DNA from: a virus
Taxonomy: Duplodnaviria > Caudoviricetes
Virus record (IMG/VR): IMGVR_UViG_3300031414_000005
Reading direction: 5' to 3' (one strand)
Length of the DNA: 64,000 bases
Translations under genes and position numbers: made by a program
Notes under the pieces: model-generated
Seen by the model: the letters and a program-made list of their open reading frames with translations, nothing else
What the model was told of the DNA's origin: nothing
The model's database searches: none
Shown: positions 4,064 to 52,503 of the stretch, in pieces
Numbering within the stretch: position 1 is the first letter of the stretch
Layout: each line of letters begins with the position of its first letter

Positions 4064-4097
4064 TTAAAAGAACACGGACCTATATTACCTGAGTGCA
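4064..4097 (+). promoter_or_regulatory. phiKZ-type early promoter (class A)
   Basis: TTAA-N12-CTATATTAC-N4-GTGCA, directly after a terminator. Confidence 0.8.
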
Positions 4098-6186: not shown

Positions 6187-6456
6187 ATGATCTTCATCCT
6201 GAAGGGCCTCTTGATCCTGGGTGTGGTGAGTGTGCTTTGTGACCTCGTTGCACCCTGGATCGATCGGATCTACAAACCGTTGACCCCACCTCACCCTGAG
6301 GTCAAACCTAACCCCTTACCTACCCAAGTGTATTACTTTGGTAACATGCCTTTACGGGAGGATAAACATGCAACCCACCCTGGAACCAGAAACCCTGCTT
6401 GCGATGCAAAGCAGCTTCCAAAAGATGAAGGCGGCCTTAAGTACTTTAGTGAGTAA
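6187..6456 (+). CDS. small membrane-anchored protein
   Basis: GGAGG RBS; hydrophobic N-terminus. Confidence 0.65.
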   Translation: MIFILKGLLILGVVSVLCDLVAPWIDRIYKPLTPPHPEVKPNPLPTQVYYFGNMPLREDKHATHPGTRNPACDAKQLPKDEGGLKYFSE

Positions 6457-41808: not shown

Positions 41809-41849
41809 TTAGAATGCAGGTCAGTTTAAGTCTATATAACCAATATGAA
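41809..41849 (+). promoter_or_regulatory. early promoter (class B)
   Basis: TTAGAATGCAG-N12-CTATATAAC-N4-ATGAA. Confidence 0.75.
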
Positions 41850-41889: not shown

Positions 41890-42291
41890 ATGAAACTGAC
41901 CAAACTGCGCTTTGTCCTGTCTAAAGAGTTCATCGAACTGTGTGCTGCAAATATCGACCGTGGTATGGCGACGGTTATCCGCCTGGCTGAACGTCGTTAT
42001 GTCTTCGCTAACCCGAAGGCCACTGAAGACATCGATATCGATGAGTCTGATGTGAACCGCGCGCTGAGCATCGCGAAGAACGAAGACGCACGTTTTGACC
42101 GCCTGGCCAACGTGTACAGCTGGATTCGTAAACAGTCTAGCAAAGCGGCTTTAACCTGGAGTAACTATCGTGCATACATCACTGCTAACGCATTGGAAAA
42201 ACTGTGGGTCGTCACCGGTGTCTATAAAGAAGCCGCTGATGTCGAAGTCGAGTTTAACCATATCGTTGGCATGGTCGCTGATGCAAAGTAA
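41890..42291 (+). CDS. hypothetical early protein (monocistronic)
   Basis: GGAG RBS; has its own promoter and terminator. Confidence 0.8.
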   Translation: MKLTKLRFVLSKEFIELCAANIDRGMATVIRLAERRYVFANPKATEDIDIDESDVNRALSIAKNEDARFDRLANVYSWIRKQSSKAALTWSNYRAYITANALEKLWVVTGVYKEAADVEVEFNHIVGMVADAK

Positions 42292-42294
42292 TCC

Positions 42295-42350
42295 ATAGCG
42301 GGAGGCTACCAGTAGGTATGCCTCCCGACTATTCACCTGATTTATTTTTT
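42295..42350 (+). terminator. terminator-like hairpin
   Basis: CGGGAGGC..GCCTCCCG followed by a T-rich tract. Confidence 0.7.
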
Positions 42351-42458
42351 AACGAAAAAGCTAAATCAGATGCGTAGTTTATAAAAACAACAGGCGTTAC
42401 CTGTGCTTATGAATTCCATCTTCTCATCGATCTACACACTCAAAAAGGTTTTATTACA

Positions 42459-42638
42459 ATGTCCACGACCAAATCACACGTTAAAGATGCCAAGAAATTT
42501 GCTAACCTGTCCCGTGCGCGTCAAGTTGAAGTCCTGATGGGCGTACGCCTGACTTCGGTTCAACGCGACCTCATTGAATACCTGGCTGATGGAGATCACC
42601 TTGCAGCTATACACCGTTCAAATCGCCCGGTATCGTAA
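42459..42638 (+). CDS. 59-aa hypothetical protein
   Basis: Hand translation MSTTKSHVKDAKKFANLSRARQVEVLMG...; AAGG RBS. Confidence 0.55.
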   Translation: MSTTKSHVKDAKKFANLSRARQVEVLMGVRLTSVQRDLIEYLADGDHLAAIHRSNRPVS

Positions 42639-42966
42639 AGCATTGGCCCTGGGTGTCCCGTTTGTGGACACCTCCATCAAAACCGGGAAGTCAGAATTCA
42701 TGCCGACCTGGGACATGGTGATGGGGTACAAGCAAGGTACTGTCAGTGAAGAACGTTACACCGAGATGTATTACGACCTGATGCGCCAACGCTATCGAGC
42801 CAATCGCCAATGGTGGTTGGCTTTTTTACGCGATCAGCCCAGCGCAGCCATTGGGTGCTTCTGTACACCGGGTGCGTTCTGTCACCGTTTATTGCTCGTA
42901 GACATCTTCAGGAAAATCTGTGAGCGCAACGATATTCCTTTTGAATACGCAGGTGAATTAACATGA
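42589..42966 (+). CDS. DUF488-like protein
   Basis: LYT.QI, FMPTWDMV..YK, GCFC.PG.FCHR.LL motif. Confidence 0.6.
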   Translation: MEITLQLYTVQIARYRKALALGVPFVDTSIKTGKSEFMPTWDMVMGYKQGTVSEERYTEMYYDLMRQRYRANRQWWLAFLRDQPSAAIGCFCTPGAFCHRLLLVDIFRKICERNDIPFEYAGELT

Positions 42967-43433
42967 TCCTGGATTACAACACCGCCTGGGACCGAATAGA
43001 GGACAGCACCCTCAAGGGTGAAACCGTCAAGTTTGTGGCCTCAAAAATCCGACCCGGCGAGTTCTACCTCCACTCGGAACCCGTGCACGGCGACAACCCC
43101 TGCCATGCTCTGGTGATTCTGAAAACCAACCACCACCTCTACGCTATCTGGGTGACCTCACCTCCGGACAGACGTACCGACACCCGTATCCTGCAACGCG
43201 CATTGATTGAGTTGTTGCAGCTGCCGTATGGTCAGATCAACGTGTTCAATAACCTGCGGGTTGACCGCCGGACACGCTACCATATTTGCAATGGGTATCG
43301 GTCGTTGTATTTCACCGACCTGGTCAAAGGCCGGTTCTCCCAGAAACAACTGGTTATCCCAAATAAACATGAAGCCTTCCTGGCGATGTTCCAGCAACAG
43401 GCCAAAGACTTCATTATTCAACAGACTTACTGA
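42963..43433 (+). CDS. hypothetical protein
   Basis: ATGA overlap. Confidence 0.7.
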   Translation: MILDYNTAWDRIEDSTLKGETVKFVASKIRPGEFYLHSEPVHGDNPCHALVILKTNHHLYAIWVTSPPDRRTDTRILQRALIELLQLPYGQINVFNNLRVDRRTRYHICNGYRSLYFTDLVKGRFSQKQLVIPNKHEAFLAMFQQQAKDFIIQQTY

Positions 43434-43444
43434 GGTACATTCCA

Positions 43445-43738
43445 ATGGTAAAAGAAGTCAAACACGGGTTCACGTTTGATGATGCTGGCTCACAGGCAAT
43501 CGGGGCGTTCTACACCGATATTGAAATAGCGCTGCGGGTCAAAGGCACCAACCTGACCCAGATCTGCCGACAGATCATCAAGCGGCATTTAAAGCAGACC
43601 CGTAACCCCGAATTGATCATCACCCTGGAAGCCCTCCAGAAGAAATACGCCCTGGTACCGGAGTTACGGGAACGGATCGCGGAATACCGGGGATTGGTGT
43701 CAGGGGAATTAGAAGTGGTGCGGCTGGTACGTTCGTAA
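43445..43738 (+). CDS. hypothetical protein
   Basis: GAGG RBS. Confidence 0.7.
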   Translation: MVKEVKHGFTFDDAGSQAIGAFYTDIEIALRVKGTNLTQICRQIIKRHLKQTRNPELIITLEALQKKYALVPELRERIAEYRGLVSGELEVVRLVRS

Positions 43739-43822
43739 ATAAATACTTACCATCAGGTATTATCTGACAGCTGTAGATGCTGCCGCGCAATAGTCAACAT
43801 TGATTTAAGCTATCATCATTTT

Positions 43823-43860
43823 TGGATCGGGTTCGCTGTATGTCCCGATCCATCTTTTTA
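43823..43860 (+). terminator. terminator-like hairpin (or first domain of the structured RNA)
   Basis: TGGATCGGG (43823-31) pairs with CCCGATCCA (43844-52); TCTTTTT follows. Confidence 0.6.
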
Positions 43861-43867
43861 TTCCGTA

Positions 43868-44098
43868 TTTGGTTGTGTGGTAAAAGAGGTTCTCCGCCTC
43901 AAGACTTGCCTGTCGCCACCACACGACCAAACCCCTTTGGCGCTTTTGGTTCACGTACCTCAAATGCGTAAGCTTCCTTCCTGGTGGAATCTCTGTCACG
44001 CCAAAAGCGCCAACCACTATGCTGTGTGAAGTCTTTGCCGGAATGACGGCAGTCCATAATAGGAAATTTCCTGGAGAGCTTCGGCTCTCCTCTTTTTT
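43868..44098 (+). ncRNA. candidate novel structured non-coding RNA
   Basis: 14-bp stem 43868-81/43918-31 (one G-U), perfect 13-bp stem 43937-49/44001-13, hairpin 44036-51, UUCG terminator 44073-98; no credible + strand ORF. Confidence 0.55.
44073..44098 (+). terminator. intrinsic terminator
   Basis: GGAGAGC-TTCG-GCTCTCC-TCTTTTTT. Confidence 0.85.
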
Positions 44099-44173
44099 GC
44101 ATTTCTTTTTTTTTGTCCTCATCATGTGACTTCGGTCGGTAACACAGAGAACCAGTTGTAGGGGACATCAAAA

Positions 44174-44338
44174 ATGAAACTCAAAAGGCTGTTCTGGATC
44201 AGGTTTCACTTAGTCCTCGTGTGGGTGTTGGTGGTGCCCATGCATTGTTCGTTGGGGGCGACCTGGTCAACCATGAAGTACAGGAGACAACAACACGAAA
44301 GGCATTTACGCTTTACTCAGGATGGCTATGAACAATAA
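44174..44338 (+). CDS. 54-aa hydrophobic microprotein with sequestered RBS
   Basis: Hand translation MKLKRLFWIRFHLVLVWVLVVPMHCSLGATWSTMKYRRQQHERHLRFTQDGYEQ; GGGG RBS. Confidence 0.45.
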   Translation: MKLKRLFWIRFHLVLVWVLVVPMHCSLGATWSTMKYRRQQHERHLRFTQDGYEQ

Positions 44339-44340
44339 CT

Positions 44341-44370
44341 AAAAAAGGGGAGAGCCGAAGCTCTCCCCAA
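44341..44370 (-). terminator. intrinsic terminator for the minus-strand operon (possibly bidirectional)
   Basis: AAAAAA-GGGGAGAGC-CGAA-GCTCTCCCC on +, i.e. a TTCG loop with a U tail on -. Confidence 0.85.
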
Positions 44371-44380
44371 TTAAGGCGGT

Positions 44381-45409
44381 TTAGCTGTGTGACCGCGTCA
44401 CCCAGGTATCCATGGCCCGCAGCCATTGCATCACCACATCCGCGTATTTATCCAGGTGGTCAGCCGCCGGCTTGAGTTTGCTCCAGTCGGTTGCCTGACA
44501 CAGCGCTTTGATCTCCGCTTTGTTTCCTTCCTTATCCTTCACCTCCATGTACAGATCCGCCGCATCTTCCAGCTCCAGCAACGTACGGGCATCAAACGCA
44601 TCGTAGAAGCTCTGGTAAGCAGTAAGGAGTTTCGACATGGTATCCGCCACATCCAACACTTCTTTCTTGCTCAGCGACTTACAGGCCTCAGGTACCGACC
44701 CTGGCTCGGTCACTTTCGGTGTTGGGATGGTCGGGACCTTAATGGCATCGATCTTCTTGCGCCCGGCGGCAATGATCTCTGGGGTGAATTCTTTTTGCTG
44801 ACGAATCCAACCCTGCACCGTCACCATCTCCCGCACGGCTTTATCCAACTGCTGGGCAAAACGCTTGGCTTGACTTAACAGGACATTGGCATCACTCAAC
44901 GCGGTGTGGAACACCTTGTCCTTGTCCAGTTCCCCGTTGATCGCTAATGCGGTCAGTCCTTTGGTGTCGATATCCCGGAACGGCGAATGCCACTTGCGTT
45001 CCTTGAGCCACTCTTCATTCCCGTATTCATCCTGGATTTTCTTGGACAGCTCTTTTAACTGCTTATCCACCTGTGCCTGCTTTGTACCCCCGAGGATTGC
45101 TTTGATCGGGGCCAGGAAACGTTTGGTGACTTCAGCCAATCCTTCACAGCTGGCTTTCAAGCGCAGTTCAGGTTCAATGATGAAGAAGCTGTCAGCGCTT
45201 TCCAGTCCGGCAGCCACCTTACCCAGGTCGCCAGTCAGTGCGGTGACTTTCTGGGTGTACTCAGTGACGTACGGATCAGACAGGTTATCCGCATCGCCGT
45301 ACAGGGCCTCTAAGCCCTCGTGAAGCAACGCCTGGAGTTGGACGTGACGTTCTTTGATTAACGCGGCTGAGGCAAACGGGGTGCCTTTGTGTTCGATATC
45401 CATTGTCAT
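44381..45409 (-). CDS. putative internal head (ejection) protein
   Basis: Helical, charged 342 aa ORF; N-terminal EGLEA and AGLES match the S/A/G-x-E prohead protease motif. Confidence 0.6.
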   Translation of the reverse strand: MTMDIEHKGTPFASAALIKERHVQLQALLHEGLEALYGDADNLSDPYVTEYTQKVTALTGDLGKVAAGLESADSFFIIEPELRLKASCEGLAEVTKRFLAPIKAILGGTKQAQVDKQLKELSKKIQDEYGNEEWLKERKWHSPFRDIDTKGLTALAINGELDKDKVFHTALSDANVLLSQAKRFAQQLDKAVREMVTVQGWIRQQKEFTPEIIAAGRKKIDAIKVPTIPTPKVTEPGSVPEACKSLSKKEVLDVADTMSKLLTAYQSFYDAFDARTLLELEDAADLYMEVKDKEGNKAEIKALCQATDWSKLKPAADHLDKYADVVMQWLRAMDTWVTRSHS

Positions 45410-45412
45410 TCC

Positions 45413-47506
45413 TCACCACCCCATTGACGCAGGCAGTTTACGTTTAACGGTTTCAAGTGTCCGCAGACTGTCGTAGTCTGCTTCACGCATCAGTTCCAAC
45501 TCTTCCAGGTCTTCAAACGACCAGGCCGAGCGTTTTGAGAAGTGAATCTCGTCAATGGCTTCCAACCCCATGTCTGGCATGTGACGGGCACCCATGATCA
45601 TCTGGACCTGCTCACGGCTCCATTCCATGATGTCGCGGGAACGGGTCGAGATATTCGGCTTATTACCGGTATCCAACTGCGCCAGCCAGATCCACACCGG
45701 TTGGGTTTGTCCCACACGGAACACCCGGGCAATGGTTTGTTTGATCTCGTAGTCACGGAACGGGGAGTTAATCATGAAAATGGTGTTGGCCATCAACATC
45801 GGTACCCCGGTCGAGAGTGAGTCAAAGGTGGCATTGCAGGGGTTCAGGTTCGGGTCATTACGGAACAACTCAATTAAGGCGTTGAAGTTCTTGTTGGTGT
45901 CACCGTAGATCTCAAGCGGGTTATACCCCTCTTGTTTCAAATGCACGGTCACCTGACGCAGGACTTCCACGTAGGACGTAAAGACCAGGGTCTTGGCTTC
46001 GGAGTTGTCGATGTACTTGGCGAGGTCAAGGTGCTCCACCATATCCACATGACAGTTGATACGTTCACGCCCCAACACGCGGCCCAGACACTCACCCCGG
46101 ATTTTGAGGTCAACGTATTTCACCACCGACTTCACATCCCGGAATTGTTTCTTCTCCTCGTTGTTCAGCACCGTGTTGATTTCTTTCTCTTCAAACTCGT
46201 TGCAGTATTTCGATTGCGCCGACATGGTTGCCCCGTCAAAGCCTAAGCGGATAAACATCGCCACATACGTCTTGTACGTTGCCAGGTCTTCCAGGGCTTT
46301 GGTTGCACCCTTCTTCTTCATCACCGCTTCATAACGATCGACACACAAATCGTAGAAACTGCGGAACTCGGCTTTGTGCAAAGTGTAATACTGGATACGC
46401 TCTGCAATAAACGCCTGCATCAAGGCACCAATCGAGTCCAGGGTATATTTGTCCCCGTTTGGCATTTTCACGGGTACCGACACAATGTCGGGATCTTTAC
46501 CCAATCCCTGTAATCGCTCGATCTTGTATTTCACTCGCCCCATACGGTTGGCCAGGATGTCATTGGCGCGTTTGGCGTTGCGTCCCCAGATCTTTTTAAA
46601 GCGCTCGGCCACACTCGGGGTAAAGAAGGGGTCGATGCACATAAAGATAGGGATGGACTCTGACCCCAGGGCTTTGATCGGGGTACCGGACATAAAGAGG
46701 ATGTCCTGGCAGTCTGAGGTCTGACAGAACTCAATCAGGTTCTGGGTCTGTTGGGCTTCCAATCGGGTGAAGTTATGGGACTCGTCAATGACGATGTTAA
46801 ACCCGTCCTTCTTGAACTTTGGCAGCATGGCTAACAACTGCTCCAGGCGTTCATAGTGGAAGATGTGCCAACGGGCATCCGGATCCCACGGCTGGTCGTT
46901 ATCGGCCACCCACACCGACTGGGTCTTGCGAAAGCCTTTGTCCATGTCCGAGAGCCAGGATTTCTGGATCACGTTCTTGGGGCACACGATCACCGTGCGT
47001 TTGTAATCCAGCAATACTGACAGGCCGTAACCAATCAATGTCTTACCGGAACCGGCTTTCCCGTCCAACAGCAACCCTTTCAGACGATGGCTGGGTTTGG
47101 CTTTCTGGTAATACTTGAAGAACCCGGTCTGGTCTTCGAACCACTGGACGTTCATTTCACGGGCCAGTTGCTGGTAATTAAAGTCCAGGCTCAGGGTGGA
47201 TTCAATGCTACGCAGCCAGGTTTCCGACTCCAGCAGTTTCAGTAACTGGATCAGACTGCGGCGGTTTGTAATGATCGACGTATCATCAATCATCTTACTG
47301 ATAATGTAATGCAGTTCGAGGGCAAAGAAACTGGGTAAGGTGAAACGATTACGCCCAATAGACGTAAACATGTATTTACCGACTACCGAGGTTTCCCAAA
47401 TGTGGGTGATGTCGCGCACGAACCAATCAGTGGAGATTCCGGTGACTTCAATGTTCTGTCCCCGCTCGGTCACTGTGATCATGCCAATCAGGCGTTTAAG
47501 GTTCAT
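45413..47506 (-). CDS. SF2 (SNF2/DEAD-like) helicase
   Basis: DGKAGSGKT, VIDESH, MSGTP and QTIARVFRVGQ. Confidence 0.92.
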   Translation of the reverse strand: MNLKRLIGMITVTERGQNIEVTGISTDWFVRDITHIWETSVVGKYMFTSIGRNRFTLPSFFALELHYIISKMIDDTSIITNRRSLIQLLKLLESETWLRSIESTLSLDFNYQQLAREMNVQWFEDQTGFFKYYQKAKPSHRLKGLLLDGKAGSGKTLIGYGLSVLLDYKRTVIVCPKNVIQKSWLSDMDKGFRKTQSVWVADNDQPWDPDARWHIFHYERLEQLLAMLPKFKKDGFNIVIDESHNFTRLEAQQTQNLIEFCQTSDCQDILFMSGTPIKALGSESIPIFMCIDPFFTPSVAERFKKIWGRNAKRANDILANRMGRVKYKIERLQGLGKDPDIVSVPVKMPNGDKYTLDSIGALMQAFIAERIQYYTLHKAEFRSFYDLCVDRYEAVMKKKGATKALEDLATYKTYVAMFIRLGFDGATMSAQSKYCNEFEEKEINTVLNNEEKKQFRDVKSVVKYVDLKIRGECLGRVLGRERINCHVDMVEHLDLAKYIDNSEAKTLVFTSYVEVLRQVTVHLKQEGYNPLEIYGDTNKNFNALIELFRNDPNLNPCNATFDSLSTGVPMLMANTIFMINSPFRDYEIKQTIARVFRVGQTQPVWIWLAQLDTGNKPNISTRSRDIMEWSREQVQMIMGARHMPDMGLEAIDEIHFSKRSAWSFEDLEELELMREADYDSLRTLETVKRKLPASMGW

Positions 47507-47557
47507 AGGTGGGGTCGCAGCCTTTAGAAGAAAGAAAAAGTTTTTACAGTCAGAGAA

Positions 47558-47598
47558 TTAGATTGCAGAAGCCGCAAAACCTATATCACCATGATGAC
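47558..47598 (+). promoter_or_regulatory. early promoter (class B)
   Basis: TTAGATTGCAG-N12-CTATATCAC-N4-ATGAC. Confidence 0.75.
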
Positions 47599-47691
47599 AA
47601 GCAATAGAAGCAACAATTTTTATCTCTTTGAGGAATTAAAATTAACGCCATTCTGGCACAACACAACGAACTCGCTAAGAAGGAATAACCC

Positions 47692-50788: not shown

Positions 50789-50819
50789 GAGCCTACTGCT
50801 TCGGCAGTAGGCTCTTTTT
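50789..50819 (+). terminator. intrinsic terminator
   Basis: GAGCCTACTGC-TTCG-GCAGTAGGCTC-TTTTT. Confidence 0.9.
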
Positions 50820-50826
50820 ACGCAAT

Positions 50827-50867
50827 TTAGATTGCAGTGTGGTTGAGGTCTATATTACCCATGTGAA
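50827..50867 (+). promoter_or_regulatory. early promoter (class B)
   Basis: TTAGATTGCAG-N12-CTATATTAC-N4-GTGAA. Confidence 0.8.
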
Positions 50868-51975: not shown

Positions 51976-52032
51976 ATTCGGCTCTTTTTTTTGCCTATTT
52001 TCTGACAGTGAGAATAAATAAAGGGCTGCATC

Positions 52033-52503
52033 ATGCTAACTGAAGCTGTACTGCGGATCATCCTCACCGCGGCGATTGGGCTGCTGGGATGGTTCATTGT
52101 TTATCGGCACCGGGTGCAAGCAGAACGTGTGGTGGAATCTCTGAGTCAGAAAAACTTAATGAGTTCGTTACGCTACCACAACCCGGCGCTTAAGGAGTCG
52201 TGTGCTTACCACGTGATCTACGGGTCATTGAAGACCCGCTACCGGTCACCCCTCGCATTGCAACTCACCCCACAACGGGAAGCGGTGATGGACACGCTGG
52301 CCATGGGGTTGTTGTGTGCGGTCACCATCGAATTGCGCGAACCGTTTTTGATTCTGTCGACCCTGGCAGAATGCATTCGGCTTGAACACAAGGTGTCTAC
52401 CAGTGTGTTTATCAATGACAAAGGAGCGATGGAACTGGTCATCCGTGAACCTACGTATGAACTGTACTACTTCGTGTTTCATTCGAAAGAGATTCTCATT
52501 TAG
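52033..52503 (+). CDS. N-terminally anchored membrane protein
   Basis: TM segment IILTAAIGLLGWFIV. Confidence 0.7.
   Translation: MLTEAVLRIILTAAIGLLGWFIVYRHRVQAERVVESLSQKNLMSSLRYHNPALKESCAYHVIYGSLKTRYRSPLALQLTPQREAVMDTLAMGLLCAVTIELREPFLILSTLAECIRLEHKVSTSVFINDKGAMELVIREPTYELYYFVFHSKEILI

Follow-up and report, generated by a model that had tools for sequence, protein, structure and literature searches.

A covarying structured RNA beside a putative small membrane-protein gene in an uncultured chimallivirus-like jumbo phage

Positions 43771-44098 (+ strand) of a 64,000-nucleotide (nt) stretch of IMG/VR virus record IMGVR_UViG_3300031414_000005 (Duplodnaviria; Caudoviricetes), which we call the window, are the gene for a structured RNA of ~330 nt that belongs to an undescribed family. 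A first-pass annotation made from the sequence alone had proposed that the + strand of a jumbo phage here encodes a structured RNA of several domains, and covariation, strand-specific G-U substitutions and helicase matches bear this proposal out. The RNA locus lies in the gap between a block of + strand genes, which ends at 43738, and a block of - strand genes (a 342-amino-acid (aa) gene and a helicase), which ends at 44381. On the comparative evidence, we are dealing with a structured RNA and neither with a chance fold nor with a DNA-level repeat.

This comparison used six related metagenome contigs from three sub-lineages (L001-L004, L012 and L013), which were obtained via neighbouring proteins. 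L001, L002, L003 and L013 are ~97% identical to the window, the flanking genes of L004 diverge at about 8.6-21% of positions, and L012 is the most divergent relative, with flanking genes that are 58-88% identical.

Fold, covariation and strand

The + strand folds, in this order, into a hairpin H1, two tandem three-way junctions D1 and D2, two hairpins H4 and H5 and a UUCG terminator T2, with a minimum free energy (MFE) of -133.9 kcal/mol and a z-score of -4.2 against dinucleotide shuffles (-2.6 for the - strand). The helices that are visible in the sequence, and that the first-pass annotation had listed, are found at their places by reading and folding alike, being recovered by the MFE and the centroid folds. 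The features of the RNA and of the small open reading frame (ORF) that follows it, with stem lengths in base pairs (bp), are:

43758..43770, +: conserved box, the 13-mer TATTATCTGACAG, which may be a promoter or a site of 5' processing for the RNA; the same in each of the seven sequences, L012 included
43771..43822, +: 5' leader, mostly unpaired; unchanged in L001-L004 and L013, 53% identical in L012
43823..43862, +: H1 hairpin of 9 bp (43823-31/43844-52) followed by a U-run, terminator-like
43868..43931, +: D1 three-way junction, with P1 of 14 bp, P2 GAGGU/GCCUC and P3 GAC/GUC
43937..44013, +: D2 three-way junction, with P1 of 13 bp, P2 apex ACCUCAAAUG, P3 apex UCCUGGUGGAA and junction CUGUCACG
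44035..44052, +: H4 hairpin (TGCCG/CGGCA, 44036-51); a G-C pair becomes A-U in L012, loop not conserved
44061..44098, +: H5 hairpin and intrinsic terminator T2 (UUCG tetraloop, U-run), from the terminator scan
44099..44173, +: leader of the small ORF, in which the helix UGUCCUC (44114-20)/GGGGACA (44161-67) covers the ribosome-binding site (RBS)
44174..44338, +: small ORF of 54 aa with a basic N-terminus and one hydrophobic segment
44347..44368, strand not assigned: palindromic terminator T3, which closes the module; terminator scan, - strand; 100% identical in L012

Covariation was computed on a model-based alignment of the seven sequences, that is, the window and the six contigs, in which 97.8% of helix cells pair. 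Eleven pairs are changed on both sides, a number reached by none of 500 shuffles, and structures slid by 1-3 columns give 0-2 such pairs; compensatory changes thus stand above the controls, and the covarying homologues to which the first-pass annotation had looked for support do exist. These double changes fall into three stems. D1-P1 (43868-81/43918-31, with a T43874-G43925 wobble) has four, accompanied by two one-sided changes, D2-P1, a perfect 13-bp stem (43937-49/44001-13) that closes two hairpins, has six, and D1-P2 has one, together with an extra pair in L012. In L004 alone, 6 of the 13 substitutions make up three exact compensations (P ~4e-5 by simulation). L012 scores 94 bits (E ~1e-19 to 1e-20) with a covariance model, R1, which covers D1 and D2, and at this depth the stems have turned over and the fold is retained by compensating changes. 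Indeed, the H1 stem is wholly different in L012 and still forms nine pairs, with the U-run retained, and the outer stem of D2-P3 is GUUUC/GAAAC there instead of AG/CU. The D2-P2 helix is unsupported, since L012 pairs there solely in a register shifted by one; a hairpin with the invariant ACCUCAAAUG tip is present in both lineages.

Constraint is distributed in the opposite way over loops and stems. The changes in L004 lie mostly within the two P1 stems, and loops, junctions, P3 and apices are near-invariant. All seven sequences share the D1-P2 loop UUCUCCG (GGUUCUCCGCC) as well as the P3 hairpin and the GCC junction that belongs to it, and the motifs that are invariant even in L012 further comprise the C-rich linker, ACCUCAAAUG, UCCUGGUGGAA, CUGUCACG and AUGCUGUGUG. 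The leader retains in L012 the blocks TAGAYGCTGC, GTCAA, TGATT and TATCATCA, and the segment 44053-44137 is 92% identical. L004 has no change at all in 43732-43851. Its divergence amounts to 4.4% over 43739-44173, compared with 8.6% in the helicase (181 nt, with just 21 aa changes), 12% in the 342-aa gene and 21% in a 97-aa gene upstream, so that among close relatives the RNA stretch changes 2-5x more slowly than the flanking genes.

The strand is fixed by the substitutions themselves. Four one-sided changes (at 43845, 43900, 43918 and 44003) give G-U pairs on the + strand and A-C on the - strand; the first of these is C43845T in H1 of L001. In addition, T43874C turns the G-U pair of the window, itself an A-C mismatch on the - strand, into G-C. 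These G-U-type changes disfavour a DNA cruciform and argue against the DNA-level inverted repeat that the first-pass annotation had named as one of the outcomes that would overturn it. Coding on either strand is ruled out because 1-nt indels at 43901 and 44106 shift all reading frames between relatives. The absence of a credible gene from the gap, which had been noticed earlier, thus holds, and the - strand ORF at 43805-44125, whose frame differs among relatives through these indels, is a false gene. Public gene calls in four relatives nevertheless put a - strand 'protein' of 98-120 aa over the RNA (L001:8813-9109; L003 and L004:13404-13700; L013:600-962).

T2 (GGAGAGC-UUCG-GCUCUCC, 44073-98) has a 7-bp stem with five G-C pairs and the tail TCTTTTTTGC. 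It was recovered as an intrinsic terminator by the terminator scan, in line with the UUCG terminator seen before, and is kept in all relatives. Its hairpin is palindromic and can hence terminate both strands. A module of ~43 nt (44073-44115), in which the T2 hairpin is joined by some of the T-rich tail, recurs at several other places in the genomes of this phage and its relatives, among them 44347-44368 and further contigs from runs X5, X7 and X17, and from these sequences the hairpin appears to be a standard terminator of this phage.

Several other structural details were noticed. The closing stems of D1 and D2 (43868-72/43927-31 and 43937-40/44010-13) share the same near-invariant basal pairs, UUGG/CCAA, and the remainder of the stems covaries. 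The P1 strands of D1 and D2 could in principle be swapped to give a four-way junction and a C-rich hairpin, an arrangement that is disfavoured by ~8-10 kcal/mol in a rough nearest-neighbour estimate. A long-range helix in the MFE fold (43858-65/44039-46) is disfavoured by G44041T in the H4 loop of L004 and by the covarying local H4. The motif CCTCAA, which had been reported in both junction loops, is indeed present twice in the window (43897-902 and 43958-63); its D1 copy is not kept in relatives. Finally, a 14-nt direct repeat, TGGTGGAATCTCTG (43982-43995 and 52130-52143, +), joins D2 to the ORF after the second TATTWTCTGACAG copy of the conserved box. It is probably due to chance (expected ~0.16 times), because relatives carry T43990A.

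RNA libraries and searches for related RNAs

A search of sequencing runs found near-identical DNA in metagenomes and other samples of 13 studies. Three RNA libraries (runs X18, X19 and X20), each from a different study, have contigs on the region (43785-44018, 43795-43967 and 43983-44129); two are phyllosphere metatranscriptomes and the third is from wastewater. These contigs are evidence of the transcript for which the first-pass annotation had asked. Those of two libraries start 15-25 nt downstream of the conserved box and extend through H1; the contig of run X20 crosses T2 and reaches 44129. No RNA-library contig covers 43300-43784, and the 342-aa gene is likewise covered by a contig in one of the libraries. 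Since a 1001-nt query had been used to find the runs, contigs at any place in the query were equally findable, and by our estimate the chance that all three would fall on the RNA is ~0.003-0.01. The RNA is probably abundant.

No known RNA family was recognised, as had been said before. Rfam 15 gave no matches in the window at gathering thresholds, and with permissive filters the best score over 43500-44500 was 25.9 bits, at the terminators, against a cut-off of 111. An ARAGORN search of the window for transfer RNA (tRNA) and transfer-messenger RNA found none, nor was there an Rfam tRNA match. The idea that the RNA mimics a tRNA, by an ACCA end and a UCA loop, was rejected, as the ACCA after D2 is CCAUCCUCA in L012 and the D and T arms are absent.

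Homologues were likewise not found outside the contigs described above. An exact-pattern scan of IMG/VR with three conserved motifs of the RNA yielded no homologue, its one pattern hit (L010) being a chance match inside an AT-rich gene, and a two-part pattern run on JGI metagenomes yielded none either, its hit (L011) being a chance match within an ORF; R1 rejects both. R1 found no match in six chimallivirus genomes, those of Goslar, Proteus phage 10, Burkholderia FLC9, Erwinia pEa_SNUABM_37, Salmonella SA002 and Erwinia RAY, which is weak evidence of absence because the model is narrow, and no second copy of the RNA in the window or in the relatives' contigs. Judged by these searches, the RNA family is so far confined to one lineage. 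A search for base-pairing targets in the 64-kb window gave nothing beyond chance, the sole 14-mer (at 52130) being the sense-strand repeat that is lost in relatives, and the invariant motifs show no excess complementarity to the 16S, 23S and 5S ribosomal RNA (rRNA) of E. coli.

The small ORF and the possible action of the RNA

Downstream of T2, a near-invariant stretch of 40 nt is followed by a small hairpin and then by the anti-RBS helix. L012 retains this helix with one wobble-compatible change and the inner hairpin with a different sequence. No relative has an interrupted ORF or one of another length; in L004 it carries 14 nt but only 5 aa changes, and in L012 its protein is 76% identical, mostly with conservative changes. 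We predict that it encodes a membrane protein. It has no match in Pfam (E up to 0.01), PHROG or Atlas and no Hok_Gef domain, its exact sequence is absent from the protein collection, and gene callers left it uncalled. Erwinia phage RAY has an ORF of 54 aa in a comparable position, which proved unrelated. The RNA is always accompanied by the small ORF in relatives: L012 has RNA, small ORF and T3 together, and synteny ends directly past T3, where the next gene is different.

At the other end of the RNA, the conserved box recurs as TATTTTCTGACAG at 51996, between a terminator and an ORF at 52033. This recurrence, pointed out in the first-pass annotation, stands, and the copy at 43758 is invariant in seven of seven sequences; the promoter role suggested there remains unproven, and the box may be a promoter of a rare class. 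A scan of 43000-45000 for sigma-70 promoters found none. Elsewhere in the window, a bipartite motif, TTAGAWTGCAG-N12-CTATATNACC, stands upstream of gene blocks (41809-41841, 47556-47590 and 50816-50859), and its core CCTATATWACC is also found at 4080, 18825, 38652 and 62578 as well as in Erwinia phage RAY (L015, ~6362-6372). This promoter-like motif is absent in front of the RNA.

We tentatively favour, at slightly less than an even chance, a structured leader that is ended by premature termination and also accumulates as a stable RNA. Transcription would start just past the conserved box (43758-70), and most transcripts would end at T2 and persist as stable folded RNA, with a minority passing T2 and carrying the small membrane-protein ORF. 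This ORF would not be translated until the anti-RBS helix opens. The invariant loops of D1 and D2 would then be the surface at which a partner, protein or ligand, controls termination or works on the RNA once it is free. Such a leader explains the co-inheritance of RNA and ORF, an ORF without a separate promoter and a contig extending across T2, and it agrees with the class of non-coding RNA (ncRNA) most often met in phiKZ-type phages. Indeed, prematurely terminated RNAs from 5' untranslated regions (5'UTRs) make up the most frequent ncRNA class both in phiKZ and further virulent phages (PMC10914365) and in phage 201phi2-1 (PMC11512511). Those of phiKZ-like and other virulent phages, mapped by ONT-cappable-seq (PMC10914365, PMC11512511), resemble our RNA in that they come from the same phage group, lie in sense upstream of a gene, have an intrinsic terminator ahead of the start codon and are conserved among relatives. 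Here, too, a terminator precedes the start codon; the RNA contigs of two libraries, whose ends are inexact, begin at 43785-43795. Unlike our RNA, those known ones are mostly <250 nt long and form simple hairpins, none has been reported with two covarying three-way junctions, and they share no sequence or model similarity with it.

Several points speak against such a leader. The box occurs just twice in 64 kb and fits neither the early-promoter motif of the phage nor a sigma-70 promoter of good quality. An alternative pairing of T2 with an antiterminator is not apparent, and since T2 is invariant, the covarying P1 strands cannot be switching sequences. H1 and its U-run, inside the supposed leader, may be the terminator of the upstream operon, in which case the RNA would be a processed 3'UTR. 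The RNA-library contigs are strandless assemblies at 2-4x depth with inexact ends, for which DNA carry-over is possible. Moreover, all double changes stem from two branches, as there are only three sub-lineages.

It is possible, if on the doubtful side, that the RNA is instead a free-standing, trans-acting RNA that binds protein as a decoy, sponge or scaffold, perhaps with an anti-defence function, each of its two similarly shaped domains offering invariant loops to a protein of the host or the phage, and that the small ORF is a mere neighbour in the same transcription unit. Invariant loops and junctions on covarying stems are the pattern of a ribonucleoprotein or of an RNA with a tertiary fold, D1 and D2 have the same topology with identical basal UUGG/CCAA pairs, and the RNA has its own strong terminator, T2. 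The RNA region, and not the small ORF, is present in RNA libraries, and the locus sits in an accessory region with gp49/66-like and acetyltransferase genes. However, such an RNA has no known partner, repeated GGA-type or other known protein-binding motifs are missing, and it matches no known family of protein-binding RNAs; nor is it ever found apart from the small ORF, among just two deep lineages.

Less likely, and in our judgement improbable, is that the RNA is a processed 3'UTR of the upstream early operon (41890-43738), whose transcripts would continue into the region, freed as a stable fragment by a ribonuclease cut near the box and acting by base pairing. The terminator scan found none from the stop codon at 43738 up to H1, at the head of the operon stands an early-type promoter motif (~41809-41841), and in our reading of the folds the half-box UGAC can pair with a conserved downstream GUCA in both lineages, as if the box were transcribed. 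There is also a precedent in phage PAK_P3, whose abundant 3'UTR-derived ncRNAs, ncRNA1 (~210 nt) and ncRNA2 (~120 nt), span 120-210 nt (PMC10914365) and are likewise stable RNAs at an operon end without an ORF. They come from another phage family and have no homology to our RNA. Against a 3'UTR origin, the RNA contigs of two libraries begin at 43785-43795 with nothing upstream, target complementarity does not exceed chance (64-kb window, E. coli rRNA), and conservation in L012 is lowest in the leader, where the seed usually lies.

Rather more of a long shot is a specific form of the leader in which D1 and D2 together are a tandem sensor, riboswitch-like or protein-sensing, that decides between a stop of the phage polymerase at T2 and its reading on into the locked membrane peptide. 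The tandem glycine riboswitch (RF00504) is similarly built of two adjacent three-way junctions, followed by an intrinsic terminator and a gene. It differs in that our RNA gives no match to it at E up to 10, its aptamer core is not recognised, no antiterminator is evident, and two extra hairpins lie between D2 and T2.

The first-pass annotation had also considered an antitoxin or riboregulator of the downstream peptide. An RNA of this kind would belong to a type I toxin locus, pairing with the leader of the small ORF to control its translation or stability, and we regard this as very improbable. As in the hok/sok and tisB/istR loci, a small hydrophobic ORF with a locked RBS adjoins a non-coding RNA, and RNA and ORF are co-inherited. 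The complementarity of 43981-96 to 44144-55 on which the idea was built (12 nt with a 4-nt bulge) does exist in the window, and by a rough estimate such a match is expected ~0.15 times by chance. It is weakened by T43990A in all relatives, close ones included, and L012 keeps CUGGU/ACCAG alone, so that 5 nt of the 12-nt match are conserved, without compensation. Because this pairing is not conserved, the antitoxin idea is unsupported. Unlike hok/sok and tisB/istR, the locus has no antisense or conserved complementary RNA, the ORF has neither a Hok/Gef domain nor any other match to a toxin family, and the RNA, besides being much larger, is arranged in tandem and in sense.

That there is no RNA element at all, and that the region is explained by a chance fold or, at a boundary of convergent genes, by a terminator cluster or DNA inverted repeats, is largely refuted and hardly credible: convergent gene blocks do flank it, it has three terminator-like hairpins, and the - strand also folds better than shuffles, yet the strand-specific G-U substitutions, the 11 covarying pairs in non-terminator helices, the invariant loops and the RNA-library contigs all stand against it.

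The phage and the meaning of the module

The window is part of an uncultured chimallivirus-like jumbo phage, whose host is probably an enterobacterium. Its SNF2/DEAD helicase (45413-47506, -) matches helicases in 205 phage records at identities of up to 41%, mostly from phiKZ-like or chimallivirus-type jumbo phages (Pseudomonas, Erwinia, Serratia and others). A search of 5.8 billion proteins found no helicase between 43% identity and its own cluster of at least 90%, and the phage lineage is thus isolated. The DNA of the window has no similarity to 50,697 phage records, an IMG/VR search via the 342-aa neighbour protein found no relatives, and searches with the 342-aa and 97-aa neighbour proteins returned matches from their own lineage only.

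Among the neighbours, the 97-aa ORF directly upstream of the RNA (43445-43738, +) is fast-evolving, differing in L004 at 21% of nt where the helicase differs at 8.6%, and has no homologue beyond its own lineage among 1.84 billion representative proteins. In L004 (9311-9865), the helicase and the gene after it are separated, at the place of ~47510-47690, by a further gene of 184 aa, which the window and the other relatives lack. In the accessory region that holds the RNA locus, the acetyltransferase genes were recognised from Pfam marks on the relatives' contigs.

To our knowledge, the mapping of ncRNAs in nucleus-forming jumbo phages has just begun, and we know of none with an established function. 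The RNA described here is known from one narrow lineage. For an RNA of an uncultured phage its support is unusually strong, combining a covarying fold, strand evidence, environmental RNA traces and a fixed partner gene. It also reveals that public assemblies carry a false gene of 98-120 aa over this RNA. If D1 and D2 were indeed a tandem sensor, this would amount to a timer or checkpoint made of RNA, serving lysis, exclusion or an abortive function in a nucleus-forming phage. In any event, our study provides a concrete and testable module of an RNA plus a peptide.
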